A stretch of 64,000 bases of DNA. Origin: Patescibacteria group bacterium. Its GTDB lineage: Bacteria; Patescibacteriota; WWE3; UBA101185; UBA10185. Shown here piece by piece: positions 2,152 through 49,160 of this stretch. A model generated the notes under the pieces. It was not told the DNA's origin, did not search any database, and saw only the letters and a program-made list of their open reading frames with translations. Both the position numbers and the translations under genes were made by a program. The stretch covers positions 12,821-76,820 of the forward strand of contig JAFGOI010000008.1 of NCBI GenBank assembly GCA_016926555.1, written 5' to 3'. Position 1 is the stretch's first letter. The number at the start of each line of letters is the position of its first letter.

Positions 2152-5027
2152 ACAAATTTCTCCGTATAGATTCTTTCTTCAGGACAACCATTCGCTATTA
2201 ATACATCCGTGGCATCCTTAACCATATACTTGTTTCCGCATAAATACGCGGAAACCTTTGAAGCATCTTTATAATCTTTCTTTACTAGATCAGTAATGAA
2301 ACCCTGATGGCCTTTCCATCCCTCATTCGGTTTAAAAACGGCTATATCATATTTAAAGTTCGGATACTCATTCTTTAAGGAATCCAGATAATCCGTCCAA
2401 AAAATGTCCTCGACAAAATTCAGACCTATATATAAATGTATCGTACCTTTAAATTTATGTTCTTTTAGCGCGGATTCAATCATACACCTAAGTGGGCTGA
2501 CACCCGATCCTGTACCCAAAAACAAAAGTGTTTCTGCGTCGTCCTCCGGTTTATACGTAAACACACCAAAGGGTCCTAAAAATGTTATTTTGTCGTTTAC
2601 TTTGAGATTTTCAAAAAACTTTGAACCGGGCCCTCCAGGTTTTGTATCTACCAATAAAGAAAACTGTTTTGTATCCACATGAGAAGCCACCGAATAACAC
2701 CTTATTGTGTTTTCGGCCACTTTAACACTTATATACTGGCCCGGATTAAATTCAAATGGTTCATCCGGAATAAAATCATATGAGTGATATGTTGTTGCTA
2801 AGACAGCGTGCCGTGAAGTCTTTGCCGTTAAAAACTGCGGTTTTTTAGCTTTCTGCGCATGTTCACCCTCTTTTAGTATAACTTTTGTGTCTACAGCCCA
2901 AACAGTATCTAAAGTAACTATAACAGGGTTAATCTCAATAGATTCCGCCTCCGGTATCATTTCGGACAGTTTAGATACTTTCACTATCAATTCGCATAGT
3001 TCGTTTAATTCATAAGGAGGACTTCCTCTGTAACCTTTGAGCAAAGTGTAAACTTTAGAATTTTCGACGAGTTTTTTTGCCGTTGGAATATCTATAGGCA
3101 GTAAATGAAGATTTCTATCTACTATCAATTCGGCCAAACTTCCCCCGGCGCCAAATAACAGCACACTCCCGAATACCGGATCCCTTTTGAACCCGACTAT
3201 AACCTCTATTCCGTTTAATATCTCCTTCTGAATCTGGATTTTTATACCCGATTTAATATTTTCGTCAAATTCTTCTATCCTCTTTTGAAGCTTATCCCAA
3301 GAGGACTCCAATTGCGCTTCGTTCATAATATCAACAATAACCCCGCCTAATTCTTTCTTGTGCACAATCTGATTTGACGAAAGCTTTAAAACCATCGGCC
3401 AGCCATTTATTTTTGAAAACTCTAAAGCCTCCTCAAACGTGTTTACTATTGATGTTGGCGGTGTTAGAAGCCCAAGAGAAACTGATATATTGTTAGAAGC
3501 TATTGCATCTAACGCTTTTACTTTTTTCGAGAGCGCTTCATTTACTATTTTTTTCATTCTTGTATCATCTGCTTCTATTTCAAAAGCCTCACTTATACTT
3601 ATCTTTTGCTTTTCAATCTGCATCTGTCTAAATCTCCACATTGAAGAAATAGCTTTTACAGCGCGTTCCGGATACCTGAAATTAGGTATTTTGTGTTTAT
3701 TTAAAATCTCTTCCCCTTTGTTAACATGGCTTCCCCCTATAAAAGAGCAGAAAATGGGTTTCTTATATTCCGCCGATAAATTACCTATGTACTCAGCGGT
3801 TTGTTCTATTTGGGTCATTAATTGAGGGGTTAATATAAAAATCAGCGCGTCAACTTTATCCGTTTCCAAAATTACTTCCGCCGCTTTCAGATATCTATCC
3901 GCTAAAGCATCACCCAAAACATCGACCGGATTTACTATATTGGCAGTTCTTGGAAGTATCTCTGCTAGTTTATTCCTTGTTTCATCCGATAACTCAGGCA
4001 GCTGCAGACCTTCAAGAACTGCGGCATCTGTGCTGATTACGGCAGGACCTCCTGCGTTTGAAATTATGTGCACATTTGGTCCCTCCGGTAGATTTTCCCA
4101 CGCAAACGCCTTTGAAAGGTCGAATAAATCCTCGAGTGTGTCGCATCTAAAAACACCGGCTTGTTTAACTACTACATCCATTACTGCGTCTTCCCCCGCG
4201 ATTGAACCTGTGTGAGATTGCATAGCTGTTGAAGATTCCCGAGTTTTTCCAGGTTTTAGAAGCAAAATAGGATCTCTATTAGATATTTCGCTGCAGATCT
4301 GTAAGAATTTCTCGCCGTCAGTTATCGATTCCAGATACATTCCAATGGGCGAGACACTGGATAGGCCATCAAATTCTGTATCACTACTTGAAACAGCATT
4401 ATTTTTATCTGGCGCGCGCATAAAATACTCTAGAGCATCATTCTCGCTTAGCACAGCTTTGTTTCCCAAGGTAATAAACTCACTATAGCCAATTCCATTT
4501 GTTTCACACCAATCAAATATACTCGAAGCTAATGCCCCTGACTGAGAAATAAACCTTAGGTTTCCCGTTTTTTCATAAATGTCCGAGAAAGTAGTATTTA
4601 AAGAGCATTTGTTATTTACAAATCCAAGACAATTTGGTCCTAAAACGTTTAAATCGTACTTCTTTGAGATCTCAACTAATTCATTTTCCAGTTCCAGCCC
4701 CGCTTCACCAATCTCTTTAAATCCTGCGGCAAGCACAACAACATTTTTTATTCCCTTTTCTCCAATCTCTTTAAGAACTCCGTTCACGGCACTCGCGGGA
4801 ACTGCTAAAACAGCTAAATCGGGTATTTCAGCAATCTCAGACACATTTTTATAGCACTTTAAGTTCAATATGCTTTCAGAAGAAGGATTTACCGGGTATA
4901 CATTTCCCTTAAAATTGGATTCTGCTATATTTTTAAGTACTATGTGCCCAATCTTTTGAGTATTACTTGACGCGCCTACAACAGCAACAGATTTTGGACA
5001 GAAAAAATCTTCTAGATTACTGGGCAT
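2148..5027 (-). CDS. Acetyl-CoA synthetase (ADP-forming, fused alpha/beta) with a C-terminal ferredoxin-NADP reductase-like FAD/NAD(P)-binding domain (about 2151-2830).
   Basis: N-terminal CoA-binding region VAVVGAS..GPNCLGF plus ATP-grasp regions. The C-terminal ~225 aa carry RxYS (RCYSVAS), GGxxS (GGPGSKF), GTGxxP (GTGSGVSP) and a CG (YLCGNKYM) motif typical of FNR-like reductases. Overlaps the korA start by 4 bp. Confidence 0.75.
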   Translation of the reverse strand: MPSNLEDFFCPKSVAVVGASSNTQKIGHIVLKNIAESNFKGNVYPVNPSSESILNLKCYKNVSEIAEIPDLAVLAVPASAVNGVLKEIGEKGIKNVVVLAAGFKEIGEAGLELENELVEISKKYDLNVLGPNCLGFVNNKCSLNTTFSDIYEKTGNLRFISQSGALASSIFDWCETNGIGYSEFITLGNKAVLSENDALEYFMRAPDKNNAVSSSDTEFDGLSSVSPIGMYLESITDGEKFLQICSEISNRDPILLLKPGKTRESSTAMQSHTGSIAGEDAVMDVVVKQAGVFRCDTLEDLFDLSKAFAWENLPEGPNVHIISNAGGPAVISTDAAVLEGLQLPELSDETRNKLAEILPRTANIVNPVDVLGDALADRYLKAAEVILETDKVDALIFILTPQLMTQIEQTAEYIGNLSAEYKKPIFCSFIGGSHVNKGEEILNKHKIPNFRYPERAVKAISSMWRFRQMQIEKQKISISEAFEIEADDTRMKKIVNEALSKKVKALDAIASNNISVSLGLLTPPTSIVNTFEEALEFSKINGWPMVLKLSSNQIVHKKELGGVIVDIMNEAQLESSWDKLQKRIEEFDENIKSGIKIQIQKEILNGIEVIVGFKRDPVFGSVLLFGAGGSLAELIVDRNLHLLPIDIPTAKKLVENSKVYTLLKGYRGSPPYELNELCELIVKVSKLSEMIPEAESIEINPVIVTLDTVWAVDTKVILKEGEHAQKAKKPQFLTAKTSRHAVLATTYHSYDFIPDEPFEFNPGQYISVKVAENTIRCYSVASHVDTKQFSLLVDTKPGGPGSKFFENLKVNDKITFLGPFGVFTYKPEDDAETLLFLGTGSGVSPLRCMIESALKEHKFKGTIHLYIGLNFVEDIFWTDYLDSLKNEYPNFKYDIAVFKPNEGWKGHQGFITDLVKKDYKDASKVSAYLCGNKYMVKDATDVLIANGCPEERIYTEKFV

Positions 5028-8090: not shown

Positions 8091-8588
8091 ATGACTGCAG
8101 TAATAAGAAGAGGGCTAGTAGGTTTGGGTTTCATTTTTATAGGGGCCTTAATGGGCATGTACTTAGTGCTACAGACGCTGGGGACGTCGTCGTATATCCC
8201 GGTGTCCCAGGGACACCACGGGACACATGACGTCGGTACCGATCCAGCGGCTACGGCCAGGTTTAACCACCTGGTCAATAGCTGGAACGTAGCAAATTTC
8301 AGTAATCCTGAGGATCCAAACAAGATCAACAGGATAGTTTGCTACGTTGTGAAAGAAGGTTCCAAGATAGCCAGGTACGTGGCCTGGCACGGAACCAGAG
8401 TTTCCTCACTGGGCACCCAGTATGGAAACTTAAACTGGTGGCAGCTCGGTGAGGAGGGGTGGGAAGCCTATTCATATGACGACATGAATTTTAGTCGTCT
8501 GGGACTCCCAAAAGATCTTGATCCCCAGCGATTTTCCTGGGAGAACGTTAATTGTGACAGTATGTATCCTCCGGGGGTTTCTCCCTAG
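8091..8588 (+). CDS. Hypothetical signal-anchored or secreted protein (165 aa) with strongly atypical GC content (about 55-60%).
   Basis: Strong Shine-Dalgarno AGGAGG before the ATG at 8091. An N-terminal hydrophobic segment is followed by a soluble domain. GC sampled at 8161-8220 is 60% and at 8341-8400 is 55%, against about 33% in flanking genes. The track ORF starting at 8016 uses TTG inside the promoter and is rejected. Confidence 0.55.
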   Translation: MTAVIRRGLVGLGFIFIGALMGMYLVLQTLGTSSYIPVSQGHHGTHDVGTDPAATARFNHLVNSWNVANFSNPEDPNKINRIVCYVVKEGSKIARYVAWHGTRVSSLGTQYGNLNWWQLGEEGWEAYSYDDMNFSRLGLPKDLDPQRFSWENVNCDSMYPPGVSP

Positions 8589-8617
8589 AAACCCCGATAT
8601 ATACATACTGCCAAATC

Positions 8618-8692
8618 CTCCCCATTCCCTGCTTAGAGCACAAACATTTTGATGAAAATCAGGTGTTAGTGTAAAGAGCAGGGAATGGGGAG
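8618..8692. other. GC-rich perfect 16-bp stem-loop (CTCCCCATTCCCTGCT ... AGCAGGGAATGGGGAG) with a 43-nt loop, between convergent genes.
   Basis: The exact reverse-complement arms are at 8618-8633 and 8677-8692. No U-tract follows on either strand, so it is not a canonical intrinsic terminator. Confidence 0.5.
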
Positions 8693-8793
8693 ATGACAAA
8701 CTCAAAATCTTATTTCTCCAAGAATCAAAATACAATTTCAGCTATAAAAATAGGAAAAACAAATAGTATATAAAAAACTTTACAAAACGAAAT

Positions 8794-21352: not shown

Positions 21353-22615
21353 GTGAAAACACCCTATATACTAAATATTAAAAATGGATTAACTCTATGT
21401 ATTATTGAAAATGAGTATTCGGAGTCTGTTACTCTACACCTAAAAGGCCACGCGGGAAGTAATTATGAGGGCAGAGATGAAATAGGAGCAGCTCACTTTA
21501 TAGAACACTATCTATTAAACCTGCCGCAAAATGAAAAGATAACTAGACAAAAGGACGCTATTTTAAAAGGTGGGGGAAAGATAATTGGAGTTACAAGCCG
21601 AGACGATGTTCTCTTTATGGTCAAGGTTCTTAAAGAGTACTTTGATACAGCCCTTCTTTACATACTAACTATCCTGAATAACGATATAACTTATAACGAA
21701 GCCGCCTTTGAGAGCACACGCAATGCAGTTTTGCAGGAGATCGAGGCTAATAATTTAAAATTATCAAGAATACTAAGTAATTCCACATATAGCATAATGT
21801 TTCCAAAACAAAGAATAGGACTGCCTAATACCGGCAAAACGGAACATGCTAAAAAATTGACATTCTCCAGTCTGAAATCTTTTCATGCAGGAAATTACTC
21901 TTACGACAATTTTACACTTGTGATATCCGGAAATATTAAAAAGAAACAAGTTTTAGAATTTCTGAATGGATTTGACTTTCCAACGGGCTCTCAAGAACTA
22001 CAGAATAAAAACACAATTGACTTAAAAAACAGCCATAACTATAAACTAAACACCTTAATCAAACCCGGATTTCTACCCTGCCACATAAAAATAGACTTCC
22101 CAAGCCTCAAATATTCGGATGACAAATCTTACATACTTAACCTCTTAGCACTAATACTTAAACTTAGCTTGAATAGAGCCCTTAAAGAAAACCTACCATA
22201 CATCAACGTAGAATGTTTTAACTACAGCTCGGGTACATTTGGCATATTTTCTGTTTATGCAACATTAGAAGGGAACAATTTGATCTCTTACTTAAACATA
22301 CTAAGAAACGTAATAGATGGTATTAATAGTATTAGCCCAGAATGCCTTTATGACTGTAAGAAAGTATATAAATCCAATTTGCTATTTTCTTTAGAAAAAA
22401 CCTCATCTATAGCGGAATACTATTCAAACTGCATTACTCACGGGAACAAAAATCAGAACCACTCATATGAACTGCGCTATATAGACAAGCTAATTAGAGA
22501 AGAGCTGATCCGCACAACAAACAACCTGTTTAAATACAAACCGAAAGTAACGTTACTGCTAAACAGCCCGATATCTGGAAAAACCGAGAACAAAATAAAA
22601 CAAATTCTAGGATGA
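21353..22615 (+). CDS. M16 (pitrilysin/insulinase) family metallopeptidase-like protein.
   Basis: Inverted zinc motif HFIEH (HxxEH) near residue 47. GTG start. Confidence 0.55.
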   Translation: MKTPYILNIKNGLTLCIIENEYSESVTLHLKGHAGSNYEGRDEIGAAHFIEHYLLNLPQNEKITRQKDAILKGGGKIIGVTSRDDVLFMVKVLKEYFDTALLYILTILNNDITYNEAAFESTRNAVLQEIEANNLKLSRILSNSTYSIMFPKQRIGLPNTGKTEHAKKLTFSSLKSFHAGNYSYDNFTLVISGNIKKKQVLEFLNGFDFPTGSQELQNKNTIDLKNSHNYKLNTLIKPGFLPCHIKIDFPSLKYSDDKSYILNLLALILKLSLNRALKENLPYINVECFNYSSGTFGIFSVYATLEGNNLISYLNILRNVIDGINSISPECLYDCKKVYKSNLLFSLEKTSSIAEYYSNCITHGNKNQNHSYELRYIDKLIREELIRTTNNLFKYKPKVTLLLNSPISGKTENKIKQILG

Positions 22616-23524
22616 AAGATATACTTTTGTAATCCTGATAAATTCCAAGACTCTAATTACATTGAATATTACGCTTGTAATCCACATCGGATATTTATCC
22701 ATATAATGTTTTCTATAGAACAATCTCATTGCTTCGGTAGATGCCCTCGCCATTTTTACTTTCGTCTCAATAGGAATCCTTCTAATATTCTTATTTTCCC
22801 CTAATATCTTCTTTGATTGTTTTCTTCCTATTGAAGCACCTTTGTAATGAAGTACCTCAATTTGAGGCAAATAATATATTTTATATCCTTTTTCTTTTAC
22901 TCTATAACAAAAATCTATATCTTCACCAAACACAAAGTAATCCTCATCCCATTTAATACCATCCTCATATATCTTCCCTTTAGTAAACATAAAATGTGAG
23001 ATGCATGCATCAATCTCATGGGGTTTACTTAGGTTTTTCCATCCCTGAAAATACTGATTGAACAATTCTGACTTAAAAAATAATTTATCCAAACTCAGAA
23101 AATGTGTCATCGCCGCCAAAGGTGTTGGGAAACCTCTATGCGCATCCCAATCGATAGAACCATCTCTCAAAACCAATTTGGGAGATAATATTCCTGCACC
23201 ATCTGAAATCTCCATGAAACCAAATAGTTTCTTAATAGCATCTTTTGTAGGAAACGCATCCGTACCCAAATAACAGATGTAATCCGCCTTGGAAATATTT
23301 AAAGCCTTGTTATGTGCAGAAGCCAATCCCTCGTTTTTACTCCTTATAAATCGGATTTTTCCTTTCTGACTATATTCTTCACAAATTTCTCTGGAACCAT
23401 CGCTGGAATCATTGTCAATAACGATAATTTCCATATTCGGCCATATATCAGCCAGATTATCCACACACTTCTTCAGCAATTCTGCCGTATTATAATTAAC
23501 TATCACAAAATCAATCTTTTTCAT
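22607..23524 (-). CDS. Family 2 glycosyltransferase (GT-A fold).
   Basis: IDFVIVNYNTAELL...IIVIDNDSSDGS matches GT2 N-terminal motifs. Confidence 0.8.
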   Translation of the reverse strand: MKKIDFVIVNYNTAELLKKCVDNLADIWPNMEIIVIDNDSSDGSREICEEYSQKGKIRFIRSKNEGLASAHNKALNISKADYICYLGTDAFPTKDAIKKLFGFMEISDGAGILSPKLVLRDGSIDWDAHRGFPTPLAAMTHFLSLDKLFFKSELFNQYFQGWKNLSKPHEIDACISHFMFTKGKIYEDGIKWDEDYFVFGEDIDFCYRVKEKGYKIYYLPQIEVLHYKGASIGRKQSKKILGENKNIRRIPIETKVKMARASTEAMRLFYRKHYMDKYPMWITSVIFNVIRVLEFIRITKVYLSS

Positions 23525-23536
23525 ATTTTCACTAGT

Positions 23537-25033
23537 CTATTCCCCTGGGCACTTTAATACAAATACGGTTGAGAAATCTTTTGGACCGAATTCTTCCTCT
23601 ACAACCTCGCACCCCGGAAAGTAATTCAACCTTTTTCTATCTGTATCCATTGAGTAAACAACATAGTCCACATCACCATCAAAATCCCTTTTTATATTAC
23701 CCTTAAAATAATAGGAAAATGACTCAATATTATTCGGAACATATACAGTGATATCTCTACCTTTACCATTTAAATATATTGCCGCATTCGCAAAATATTC
23801 GCCGCTATTATCGTAAAATCCGTTTTCAAGAGCTGTTTTCGTGCCTCCTAAAACACCTGAGTAGTACGCGGAATAAACCGGGTGATATTTTTCCACGGCT
23901 ATAAGAAACACCATCATAGACAGAAAAACCGGCAATCCAGGTTTCATAAGGTAATTCGTAAAACATATAGAGATTGTTAGAATTATCGAAGGTAAAAACA
24001 CTATGGAATACCTATCAATTTTCTGGGATGTTATAGTTAGGAACAAGAAGCTCAATAATATATTTGCGAGTACAATCAGAATATTAAAATCTTTTGTCTT
24101 CCTTATTTCCCATAACGAAACTAAAAAAAGCGTTACAGTAACAAAAGAGTATTTATACAAAAAAACGGCGGGGTAATACAAAAAAGATGTTATACCGCTA
24201 TAATCACTTTTTCTTATTTCGCCATTTATCGATCCTGTAATACCGCGGAAAATATTACTAAACACATAGAACGAATCTGTCCACATTGCAGGGAAAAATA
24301 AATAAAAAGTAAGAATTACCAACAATGGAAAAGAAATCAATATTAGCACATTTCTATGCTCCTTAAACTTCAGCAGCAACACTAAAAAAATAGCCGGAAT
24401 TACTATTACGGCACTTATTTTTGTAAGCAGAGCTAACGCCAACAGCACTGCCGACAGATTTAAAGCTCTTTGGTCATAACATTTCGACCAATACATAACA
24501 AACAGCAGAGATGTAAACATCAAATTTATCTCCAGAGAAGTCAGATGAAACCATCTATTAATGCCTATATAGTAAGGCTCTATGGATATGAGCATCACGT
24601 AAATAAGCGCGGTTTTTACTGAAAACAACCTTCCTATCAGCTCATATTGAATTGTCACAAGAGCAAGGAGAGATAATATAACAAACAGACGCGTAATTAG
24701 GTGTATAACTGGATAGAAATCAGCATTTTCAAGTGTTTTGGGTTCCATATTGCGTATTAGCTGGTACCTGAATAAAATTTCTTCCGAGATCGCGCCAATC
24801 CACATTATAGTCACACCTGGGTGATAACTTTGGTATGTCTCTTTGAAATCGCCAGATTTTAACGACTCCAAGAATCCTATAGACCTTCTGTGCCATCTCG
24901 CTGCATCTGAATTCGACATGTCGTATTTCAAGGATGTGGTTCTGGGAAGTAGAAACAACAGCGATATGATGATATATATTTCCTTTCCCCTCAAGAGAAT
25001 AAGTAAGCTTTTAATTTTACTCATTAACACCAT
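23537..25033 (-). CDS. GT-C fold membrane glycosyltransferase (GT39/PMT-ArnT-like). Paralog of 40718-42226.
   Basis: More than 10 predicted transmembrane helices. N-terminal region similar to the 40718 protein (HPGVTIMW versus KPGITVHW). Confidence 0.55.
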   Translation of the reverse strand: MVLMSKIKSLLILLRGKEIYIIISLLFLLPRTTSLKYDMSNSDAARWHRRSIGFLESLKSGDFKETYQSYHPGVTIMWIGAISEEILFRYQLIRNMEPKTLENADFYPVIHLITRLFVILSLLALVTIQYELIGRLFSVKTALIYVMLISIEPYYIGINRWFHLTSLEINLMFTSLLFVMYWSKCYDQRALNLSAVLLALALLTKISAVIVIPAIFLVLLLKFKEHRNVLILISFPLLVILTFYLFFPAMWTDSFYVFSNIFRGITGSINGEIRKSDYSGITSFLYYPAVFLYKYSFVTVTLFLVSLWEIRKTKDFNILIVLANILLSFLFLTITSQKIDRYSIVFLPSIILTISICFTNYLMKPGLPVFLSMMVFLIAVEKYHPVYSAYYSGVLGGTKTALENGFYDNSGEYFANAAIYLNGKGRDITVYVPNNIESFSYYFKGNIKRDFDGDVDYVVYSMDTDRKRLNYFPGCEVVEEEFGPKDFSTVFVLKCPGE

Positions 25034-32811: not shown

Positions 32812-32887
32812 GCGCCCGTAGCTCAGCGGATAGAGCAGTTCCCTTCTAAGGAAAAGGTCGGGGGTTCAATTCCCTCCGGGCGCGCCA
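32812..32887 (+). tRNA. tRNA-Arg (anticodon TCT).
   Basis: Acceptor GCGCCCG/CGGGCGC, anticodon loop CTTCTAA, T-loop GGTTCAATTCC, CCA encoded. Confidence 0.8.
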
Positions 32888-32934
32888 AAAAAACTTGTCA
32901 CCATTTATTAGCTAAACGTATAATCTTTTTACAC

Positions 32935-33020
32935 GCCCGGGTGGTGGAATGGCAGACACGAGAGACTTAAAATCTCTTGTCCTTTTGGACGTGTGGGTTC
33001 GACTCCCACCCCGGGCACCA
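32935..33020 (+). tRNA. tRNA-Leu (anticodon TAA), with a long variable arm.
   Basis: Acceptor GCCCGGG/CCCGGGC, anticodon loop CTTAAAA, long variable arm, T-loop GGTTCGACTCC, CCA encoded. Confidence 0.8.
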
Positions 33021-33386: not shown

Positions 33387-34550
33387 TCAATACCTAATAA
33401 ATTTATGAGTATATGAGGTCGACGTAAGCTCTCCTTCAATTAATTCTTTATATTTTTCCTGTAGATCTTTCAGTGGTATACCGCTTGCCTCTGAGTAAGC
33501 TTTAAAGAAAGTATTTAGTGAATTTACAGCTATTCCACGGGCCATTTCGTGCGCAGTAGTTTCTTCTAAAATATTATTATCAACACAAAAAGTTTGAAAC
33601 GCATGAGTATACAGTTCGGGTATTGACATTACTGTTTGTGATAAATCACAATGGACATCTTCAAGTGTGAAATCTTTAGATTGTAATGGTTTTGCACCTT
33701 CCAAATCAACCAATTCTCCAGTTAGAGTCCAGTTATGAGTTGTAGGATATTTATGAAAGTAACCCGTACCATGAAATCTTGCTAAGTAATTACCCATAAG
33801 TGCGGGAAGATCCTGAGTATAATATTTATAAAATCCCTCCGGAGTAGGTTCAAAGTCAACTCCACGATAATTGTCCATAAAGTACGTTGATAAATTATGC
33901 ATTAACCTTTGTGCTTCAGAAGAATCTATGTCTTTTATAATTTGCGGTGTATCTCTGAGTCTTTCCTGAAATGGAACTATTCTTATGATCTCGTAGTATT
34001 GAACTCTTTCTAAATATACATCTACTTCTTCTTCAGTAAAATCCAGTGTTTGTTTCTCACTGTCTGATCCGAAATATTCTTCCTTTAGGCGTTTTTTTAA
34101 TTCTTCTATAGTTAGTTTTTCACCATCTATATTCATTTTGGACAGTTTTTTTGCAACTACCATTGTCTCGGTCGGCAAACCAGCTGCCCTAACTGACTCT
34201 GATATTTTTTGAAGACGTTCAAGTTTAGAATCATCTGATACATGATATAAGTAATGAGTGCGAAGATGCCCGTAATCCGGATCTCTTTCTAAATAAGGAG
34301 ACTTGCCTTCCGGAACACTTCCTTTCAAAGAGACTGCCGTAAACCTATTACCATGCTCATCCGCCCAAAGAACATTACCATCAATTATCTCACTGCCAAG
34401 AGACCTCATATGATGTTCAGAAACACGGTAGGTATCCATTATCTTTTCGGGTAATTTAAATGGCACACCGGGTGTTCTGAAAAATATACAGTCACTCTCT
34501 GTTGGCACAGGATCGACCTTTTCGTAATTTTCGACTACTCCTAACGCCAT
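33387..34550 (-). CDS. Hypothetical protein (387 aa).
   Basis: Long ORF. No motif recognised. Confidence 0.5.
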   Translation of the reverse strand: MALGVVENYEKVDPVPTESDCIFFRTPGVPFKLPEKIMDTYRVSEHHMRSLGSEIIDGNVLWADEHGNRFTAVSLKGSVPEGKSPYLERDPDYGHLRTHYLYHVSDDSKLERLQKISESVRAAGLPTETMVVAKKLSKMNIDGEKLTIEELKKRLKEEYFGSDSEKQTLDFTEEEVDVYLERVQYYEIIRIVPFQERLRDTPQIIKDIDSSEAQRLMHNLSTYFMDNYRGVDFEPTPEGFYKYYTQDLPALMGNYLARFHGTGYFHKYPTTHNWTLTGELVDLEGAKPLQSKDFTLEDVHCDLSQTVMSIPELYTHAFQTFCVDNNILEETTAHEMARGIAVNSLNTFFKAYSEASGIPLKDLQEKYKELIEGELTSTSYTHKFIRY

Positions 34551-34609
34551 AAAGTTATTTTAAATTAATTTACAGTTATAAGCTATAAATCTGTTTTGAA
34601 AATTATCTC

Positions 34610-34706
34610 TTGACAACCCATACAATTTTTAGTAAATTGATCTTCGTCTCAATAGGAATTTATTCCTATTGAGACACTGAAGAAACCACCTAACGGTGGT
34701 TTTTTC
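34610..34706 (+). ncRNA. Putative small leader RNA or attenuator: a promoter-like TTGACA-17 bp-TAAATT, then a perfect 12-bp hairpin (34646-34675), then an intrinsic-terminator hairpin AAACCACC-TAAC-GGTGGTTT with a T-run (34684-34706).
   Basis: All elements read directly from the sequence. Located in a divergent intergenic region immediately upstream of the CDS at 34745. Confidence 0.4.
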
Positions 34707-34744
34707 ATTTACTGATTAAAATAGTGTAAAATAACATAGCTAAA

Positions 34745-35152
34745 ATGAAAGTATATATCGGTTATAAATATACAAACGTTGAAGACAAAAATTCCCTTAA
34801 AAAAGGCCTTGAAGAGGTCTCTGATATTATTTCTGATTTGGGACACACTACATTTTTATTAGGCAGAGACAAGAAAAACTGGAGCAGCAGCAGATTTCCG
34901 CTATGGAAAACTATTCCTTACATCTTCATAAACCTGATTAACTCGGAGCTACTTTTTGCATATATTGTAAATGATGAAAAAAGCTATGGATTATCATTTG
35001 AACTCGCACTTGCTAAGTTGATGAAGAAGAAAATTATTGTAGCCTTGACTAACAAAAATCTATCATGCGAATTCGAAAAAAGAATGGCGGATCAAATAGT
35101 GGAACTTAGTAGTTTTAGCGAATTGAAAGAATATCTCGCCCGCGAACTATAG
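34745..35152 (+). CDS. Nucleoside 2-deoxyribosyltransferase-like (PF05014-like) small protein.
   Basis: MKVYIGYKY N-terminus (NDT-like KIYxAGP pattern) and C-terminal YGLSFELALAKLMKKKIIVAL resembling the conserved catalytic Glu region (DxGTxFEiGyA). Confidence 0.4.
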   Translation: MKVYIGYKYTNVEDKNSLKKGLEEVSDIISDLGHTTFLLGRDKKNWSSSRFPLWKTIPYIFINLINSELLFAYIVNDEKSYGLSFELALAKLMKKKIIVALTNKNLSCEFEKRMADQIVELSSFSELKEYLAREL

Positions 35153-48894: not shown

Positions 48895-48971
48895 GACCGG
48901 GTAGCTCAGTTGGTTAGAGCGCCACGTTGACATCGTGGAGGTCACAGGTTCGAGTCCTGTCTCGGTCACCA
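48895..48971 (+). tRNA. tRNA-Val (anticodon GAC).
   Basis: Acceptor GACCGGG/CTCGGTC (one G-U pair), anticodon loop TTGACAT, T-loop GGTTCGAGTCC, CCA encoded. Confidence 0.85.
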
Positions 48972-49139: not shown

Positions 49140-49160
49140 CGAGTCCTGTCTCGGTCACCA
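49140..49160 (+). repeat. 21-bp direct repeat CGAGTCCTGTCTCGGTCACCA, identical to the tRNA-Val 3' end (48951-48971). Att-like duplication.
   Basis: Exact copy read in the sequence 169 bp downstream of the tRNA. The intervening 168 bp is GC-rich and contains small hairpins. Confidence 0.7.

Follow-up and report, generated by a model that had tools for sequence, protein, structure and literature searches.

A candidate small-RNA gene of two perfect hairpins, with a match to a glycosyltransferase gene, in a Patescibacteria genome

Between two divergently transcribed genes of an uncultured member of the Patescibacteria lies a compact module of promoter, hairpins and terminator, and its position raises the question of whether it forms the terminated leader of the gene that follows or a gene in its own right. 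The module is housed in a divergent intergenic region of 194 nt (34551–34744) within the window, by which we mean the whole 64-kb stretch of DNA that was analysed, from a MAG with locus tags JXA34_. On one side, the minus strand carries a gene for a 387-aa protein of an uncharacterised family (33387–34550), the divergent neighbour of the module. On the other, the plus strand carries a gene for a 135-aa protein (34745–35152), a divergent member of a nucleoside 2-deoxyribosyltransferase (NDT)-like family. An independent Logan assembly is identical to the window across 5.1 kb around the module. A sequence-only reading had placed the promoter, the hairpins and the terminator here, and every one of these elements was found at its position. 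The same reading had offered two interpretations, of which the independent small RNA fits the evidence presented below and the terminated leader, which would attenuate the NDT-like gene, fits it poorly. Patescibacteria have minimal genomes with few recognisable regulators; regulatory RNAs of this group (the candidate phyla radiation) are, to our knowledge, hardly described, and our literature search for regulatory RNAs of Patescibacteria found nothing.

The promoter (34610–34638, plus strand) is of the sigma-70 type. It combines a perfect −35 box, TTGACA (34610–34615), an optimal spacer of 17 nt and a −10 box, TAAATT (34633–34638), that retains A2 and T6, and an A/T-rich stretch lies upstream. 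The pairing of these two hexamers, already proposed from the sequence, was borne out with a score of 10/12 against the sigma-70 consensus. Since the number of sigma-70-like sites in this A/T-rich window does not exceed that of shuffled sequences, a lone hexamer match means little, and it is the placement of a site that is informative. Sites scoring at least 10/12 occur at 25 per 128 kb of strand; for 11 of these 25, a gene or tRNA in the same orientation begins on the predicted start or follows it within 0–40 nt, where by our own estimate about 0.5 would be expected by chance. Judged from this placement at gene starts, the genome seems to make use of this sigma-70 consensus. The 34610 site is the exception among the well-placed ones: its predicted start (34645–34646, plus strand) coincides with the base at which hairpin 1 begins and leaves 100 nt to the next ATG. 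On the minus strand, no promoter scoring at least 9/12 was found upstream of the element.

We placed the start at 34645/34646 because the leaderless genes of this window show a spacing of 6–7 nt between the −10 box and the ATG. A −10 box ending 5–8 nt before the ATG, together with a recognisable −35 box, was present at 21 of the 57 genes, compared with 9.5% of random positions, and a Shine-Dalgarno-like motif was present at only 7 of the 57 genes of the window. The genome looks rich in leaderless mRNAs, with the leaderless layout as its main promoter type; examples among the gene starts of the window are found at 5027, 19552, 20519, 31130, 34550, 50686 and 50745. This reliance on leaderless promoters helps in reading any intergenic region of the genome. 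At the present locus, only 6 nt separate the −10 box of the 387-aa gene, TAAAAT (34557–34562, minus strand), from the ATG. The 135-aa gene, which lacks a Shine-Dalgarno sequence, is preceded by a candidate proximal promoter of the leaderless type (34708–34744, plus strand), composed of TTTACT (34708–34713), 18 nt, TAACAT (34732–34737) and 7 nt to the ATG, with a score of 8/12. Since both flanking genes have a leaderless-type promoter of their own, the small RNA would not be their leader. The presence of a separate promoter and terminator between the two leaderless promoters favours a small-RNA gene over an attenuator.

Hairpin 1 (34646–34675, plus strand) has arms GTCTCAATAGGAAT (34646–34659) and ATTCCTATTGAGAC (34662–34675), which are 14 nt long and 100% complementary, and it folds as 13 bp with a 4-nt loop, UUUA, at −17.7 kcal/mol. 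It had been described as a perfect hairpin of 12 bp; the perfect pairing was confirmed and the length had to be corrected to the 14 nt of the arms. No other perfect 14-nt inverted repeat exists in the 64 kb. Hairpin 2 (34678–34707, plus strand), UGAAGAAACCACC-UAAC-GGUGGUUUUUUCA, also has 13 bp (−17.5 kcal/mol), and in it an A-rich upstream tract pairs with the U tract. Its core (34683–34702, plus strand), AAACCACC-UAAC-GGUGGUUU, resembles the stem of an intrinsic terminator: CCACC/GGUGG extended by AAA/UUU, closed by the loop UAAC, with −10.2 kcal/mol for the 8-bp core. This agrees with the earlier description of AAACCACC and GGTGGTTT around a TAAC loop. Six T (34700–34705) stand directly after GGTGG, followed by CATTT; as three of the six lie inside GGTGGTTT and only three follow it, the claim of five or more T after the stem did not hold. 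The terminator ends 38 nt before the ATG at 34745, on the same strand as the gene, just as had been read from the sequence.

In our own census of the 64 kb, no hairpin followed by a T run was stronger than hairpin 2, and about two other such structures sit at gene ends, where canonical terminators are rare. A separate terminator scan omitted hairpin 2, presumably because maximal stem extension consumes the T run. We assume, from general bacterial biology and from the locus of a relative of the 387-aa gene (L153, see below), that intrinsic terminators are used here. The divergent intergenic region around the hairpin contains no gene end that would call for a terminator. The 71-nt fold that comprises both hairpins reached −37.5 kcal/mol, compared with −10.7 ± 2.7 kcal/mol for shuffled sequences (z = −9.95; 0 of 200 shuffles as good), and it ranked second of 25,572 windows of 70 nt on both strands (mean −9.0, sd 4.3). 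The structure is thus beyond chance. The most stable 70-nt fold of the window is a long hairpin at 8611–8695, located between convergent genes and following a G+C-richer one (8091–8588); its arms share an exact 16-mer, CTCCCCATTCCCTGCT and AGCAGGGAATGGGGAG, around a loop of about 43 nt, and it has neither a T run nor an Rfam match.

These features are best accounted for by a self-contained plus-strand gene for a small non-coding RNA, a reading to which we give an even chance and in which transcription and termination are inferred from the sequence. The sigma-70-type promoter would start transcription near 34645/34646, hairpin 2 and its U tract would end it at about 34702–34706, and the predicted transcript of about 57–62 nt would consist almost wholly of the two perfect 13-bp hairpins. 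The transcript has no ATG and no credible ORF. A type I toxin-antitoxin locus was considered and rejected, the only ORF being one of 20 aa that starts with TTG within the −35 box and has no Shine-Dalgarno sequence. A 45-aa antisense ORF (34709–34846) was likewise set aside; it has no ribosome-binding site and shares sequence with the N-terminal end of the 135-aa gene, which is highly conserved.

The sequence-only reading had suggested a small RNA with no mention of a match elsewhere in the window; we found one, of 33 in 36 positions, at a distance of 12 kb in a gene for a 305-aa GT2-family glycosyltransferase (22607–23524, minus strand; PF00535, 3.7e-26), a candidate target or source of hairpin 1. 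The GT2 gene lies in an operon, 12 nt downstream of a PMT_2-type glycosyltransferase gene (23537–25033), and we assume that this operon acts on the cell surface. An exact 17-nt copy, TTCGTCTCAATAGGAAT, of positions 34643–34659 occurs at 22761–22777 (plus strand), in GT2 codons 250–255, which gives the element RNA full complementarity to the mRNA at this site; the BLAST E value is 0.001, and a length of 17 was reached by 1 of 1000 shuffles. Sixty nucleotides further along that strand, with the order of the element preserved, a second collinear match, TTTCTTCCTATTGAAGCAC (22821–22839, plus strand; GT2 codons 229–235), corresponds to the loop and 3′ arm of hairpin 1. Here 16 of 19 positions are identical to the element (34659–34677, TTTATTCCTATTGAGACAC) and 17 of 19, one G-U included, could pair with the GT2 mRNA. 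The combined match of 33/36 compares with a maximum of 28 among 1,500 random elements that preserved the palindrome and the arm composition. In the opposite orientation the match to the GT2 gene is only 25/36, so that a plus-strand RNA, whose direction is set independently by promoter and terminator, would run antisense to the transcript of the GT2 gene. At its 3′ end this gene overlaps by 9 nt (22607–22615) with the 3′ end of a convergent M16 peptidase gene (21353–22615), and our terminator census found no hairpin-plus-T-run there; read-through from the M16 peptidase gene would also be antisense to the GT2 mRNA.

Cofolding of the element RNA with every 120-nt window of both strands gave a ddG of −13.9 kcal/mol for the GT2 sense strand, −2.9 kcal/mol for its complement and −3.4 kcal/mol for the best unrelated site, on a background of −0.3 ± 0.5 kcal/mol; four control RNAs with random palindromic arms reached −2.4 to −3.4 kcal/mol. 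Complementarity to the GT2 mRNA is therefore above background. The element has no accessible single-stranded seed, the complementary bases sitting in the perfect 13-bp stem, and opening such a stem is kinetically demanding. With a start at 34646, the 5′ UUC falls outside the RNA, no 5′ overhang is left and the net pairing gain falls to between −4 and −9 kcal/mol. DNA identity with the GT2 gene runs 2–3 nt upstream of the predicted start, which common ancestry would explain as readily as, and perhaps better than, selection for pairing. Five loci of repeated 17-mers exist in the window, which shows that exact 17-mers are not unique events here. No further copies of hairpin 1 were found in about 8 kb recovered beyond the window. 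The sequence relationship between hairpin 1 and the GT2 gene is established; a regulatory relationship between the element RNA and the GT2 mRNA is put forward as a hypothesis.

Under this hypothesis, which gives the most likely mode of action, antisense pairing would bring the 5′ arm of hairpin 1 to GT2 codons 250–255 and its 3′ arm to codons 229–235. Once opened, the hairpin would hold both sites, separated by 43 nt, in a duplex of about 34 bp that could plausibly serve as a substrate for RNase III or hinder translation. An imperfect inverted repeat inside the GT2 gene is probably the origin of hairpin 1 or its partner in co-evolution. That the small RNA targets the GT2 mRNA is a tentative proposal built on complementarity. 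The complete scheme, in which a hairpin small RNA born from the imperfect inverted repeat of its target gene clamps two GT2 sites and directs RNase III cleavage, must be regarded as more doubtful still. The same organism encodes an RNase III (Ribonuclease_3 and dsrm domains), whose gene (L149, 13104–13802) lies some 6 kb past the right-hand end of the window.

An attenuator would work differently from such a separate gene: the 135-aa gene would be transcribed from 34610, and hairpin 2 would stop most transcripts unless a protein or metabolite permitted read-through. Promoter, terminator and gene do share one strand, with 38 nt between terminator and ATG, and the proposed proximal promoter of the 135-aa gene scores so modestly that 34610 could be the sole real one. 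The predicted RNA, however, offers no antiterminator. When the 3′ arm of hairpin 2 was blocked in constrained folding, its 5′ arm stayed unpaired (−23.2 compared with −41.5 kcal/mol), and when the 5′ arm of hairpin 1 was blocked, the terminator was not invaded, leaving no alternative pairing between the two. Nor does it contain an Rfam aptamer or a leader peptide, the only small ORFs being of 20–21 aa with TTG starts. At gathering thresholds the window matched only tRNAs in Rfam; at E ≤ 10 no riboswitch aptamer appeared and every match stayed below its gathering score, among them a weak match to Phe_leader on the other strand (19 bits compared with 55 for gathering) and the best one, RNAI (RF00106), with 35.4 bits against 47. 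A 100-nt leader to a gene that lacks a Shine-Dalgarno sequence would be atypical in a genome whose genes are mostly either leaderless or provided with one and whose strong promoters start 0–40 nt from the gene. Upstream regions of 13 distant homologues of the 135-aa gene show no such leader. On this evidence attenuation is quite improbable.

The match to the GT2 gene could also mean that the element is a non-functional by-product: a GT2 fragment, or a template-switch copy of the inverted repeat of that gene, would have become a perfect palindrome, and the likeness to a promoter and a terminator would be coincidental or recent and unselected. Correction of quasi-palindromes can produce perfect ones, and the identity is exact at the DNA level and reaches past the predicted transcript start. 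We consider this account unlikely, as it needs three independent rare features to be adjacent, in the right order and on one strand, in a window where sites of at least 10/12 are as sparse as described above, where the terminator is the best of all and where neither stem has a mismatch. Alternatively, the 30-bp perfect palindrome might act as DNA, binding a dimeric regulator of the divergent promoters, with hairpin 2 being incidental. Operators are often present in divergent intergenic regions, and the dyad, at +1 to +30 with respect to the 34610 promoter, shares bases with a TTGAGA-16-AAAAAT site on the minus strand. Yet neither flanking protein matched a DNA-binding domain, the only other copy of the half-sites lies inside the GT2 coding sequence with the half-sites 48 nt apart, perfect arms of 14 bp far exceed the usual operator half-sites, and the adjacent terminator would be left unexplained; an operator is thus very improbable. 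To the last possibility, an insulating terminator, we attach next to no weight. Hairpin 2 would stop transcripts that run on from the plus-strand tRNA-Arg and tRNA-Leu genes upstream (32812–33020) and pass antisense across the 387-aa gene, and no strong plus-strand terminator was found between these tRNA genes and the element. Such read-through would need to span 1.6 kb, and the strong promoter directly in front, hairpin 1 and the GT2 match would all have no explanation.

The small-RNA gene that we favour was then followed outside the window through its neighbours. The only close relative of the 135-aa protein (P0002, 78% identity) lies on a contig of 963 bp from JGI metagenome 3300042731, which includes 223 nt upstream of its gene. 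In a metagenome scan, the 13 homologues of the 135-aa gene (28–41% identity) had no comparable hairpin or terminator in their upstream regions, and most of them stand in operons. The closest relatives of a 588-aa protein encoded nearby reach 52% identity (WWE3, Woesebacteria and Pacebacteria according to their sources), and three loci showed no synteny. Both contexts examined for relatives of the 387-aa protein were free of a divergent arrangement, and upstream of the relative in L153 only an ordinary terminator and a leaderless-type promoter were present.

The earlier suggestion that the 135-aa gene is NDT-like is supported at the level of the family, of which 10 of 13 members match PF05014 (best 1.1e-10); the protein of the window alone matched no Pfam model. 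Matches of the family profile include the CMP N-glycosidase 4jen (3.8e-8) and several NDTs (near 1e-5). Two residues, G82 and E86, do not vary across the family alignment, and E86 is assumed to be the catalytic Glu. For the 387-aa protein, a word-index search returned only the protein itself and an exhaustive HMMER search returned 260 distant relatives with identities of at most 40%. This family has no Pfam or PDB match; its invariant residues K76, E128, H260, N273 and D282 give the impression of a protein-kinase-like catalytic core. AlphaFold models of the two proteins were too poor for a fold search (pLDDT 49 for the 135-aa and 40 for the 387-aa protein).

Searches for the element itself returned no equal. 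A scan of a genome collection with the pattern TCAATAGGAAN{0,30}TTCCTATTGA produced more than 119 matches, none equal to the element, mostly a dispersed repeat of Butyrivibrio/Lachnospiraceae and hairpins of Bacteroidota; the pattern is too short given how common hairpin stems are, and its matches are therefore not evidence of homology. Among viral contigs, the palindrome pattern had 10 matches, all unrelated hairpins, and the 17-mer had 3 matches with no adjacent hairpin; we read both sets as chance and discarded them. Phage and plasmid blastn gave nothing significant, and the PADLOC defence models gave no credible match.

The element is, by its sequence, an orphan candidate small RNA that matched no described RNA family and is yet of a familiar kind. 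With trans-encoded small RNAs it would share a promoter of its own, a length of 50–100 nt, the absence of coding capacity and a Rho-independent terminator, and it has in common with them a stretch of complementarity to a distant coding sequence. In Salmonella, the trans-encoded MicC reportedly pairs inside the coding sequence of ompD and triggers RNase cleavage. Unlike RNAs of the MicC–ompD type, the element has no single-stranded seed, its complementary bases being locked in a perfect hairpin; its complementarity is long (17 bp perfect and 17/19) and split over two sites, its host belongs to the Patescibacteria, and no Hfq or ProQ partner is known. It resembles the plasmid antisense RNAs of the RNAI family (RF00106) in its order of hairpins followed by a terminator and in that its partner RNA would carry complementary hairpins. 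The terminator stem, AAACCACC...GGTGGTTTTTT, is like that of ColE1-type RNAI, which explains the near-match in Rfam and weak blastn matches to small Klebsiella plasmids. In contrast to RNAI, the element is encoded in trans and has no replication origin or plasmid context, and the likeness is limited to the generic terminator stem. Attenuators and riboswitch leaders likewise place a promoter, a structured RNA and a terminator upstream of a co-oriented gene, whereas the element has no antiterminator, aptamer, leader peptide or Shine-Dalgarno sequence and is followed, after its terminator, by a separate leaderless-type promoter. As an analogy only, some plant microRNA genes were born by inverted duplication of their target gene, giving a hairpin with both arms derived from and complementary to a segment of that gene. 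Plant microRNAs belong to another domain of life with other processing machinery, and the source here would be an existing imperfect inverted repeat in the gene, whose 43-nt spacer is missing from the hairpin.

If the small-RNA reading is correct, the locus would provide a concrete example, in Patescibacteria, of a small RNA with a defined promoter, a terminator and a statistically supported candidate target. If it also acts on the GT2 mRNA in the way proposed, a cell with a reduced genome would control a surface glycosylation operon post-transcriptionally without a classical seed. A lifestyle of attachment has been ascribed to some Patescibacteria, and surface glycans may be of importance for it. 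Should the RNA not be expressed, the locus would be an unremarkable curiosity in the form of a palindrome that was copied out of a gene.

Two repeats met in the course of the searches deserve description. The Butyrivibrio/Lachnospiraceae repeat (L017, L019, L020, L024, L053 and others), unrelated to the window, has the form TTTTTAT-TCAATAGGAAAT-loop-ATTTCCTATTGA-ATAAAAA and lies beside GCATCCTTAGCGGAGCGC. It carries a T run before the stem and an A run after it, and is thus not terminator-like on either strand; it had no Rfam match in five loci. In the single neighbourhood examined, that of L019, about 100 nt separate the repeat copy from the end of a gene for an ordinary MFS transporter. In the window itself, the 21-nt 3′ end of a tRNA-Val gene, CGAGTCCTGTCTCGGTCACCA (48951–48971), is directly repeated about 190 nt downstream (49140–49160), with a G+C-richer structured spacer between the copies, and to judge by this arrangement it looks like an att-type integration scar or a partial tRNA duplication.
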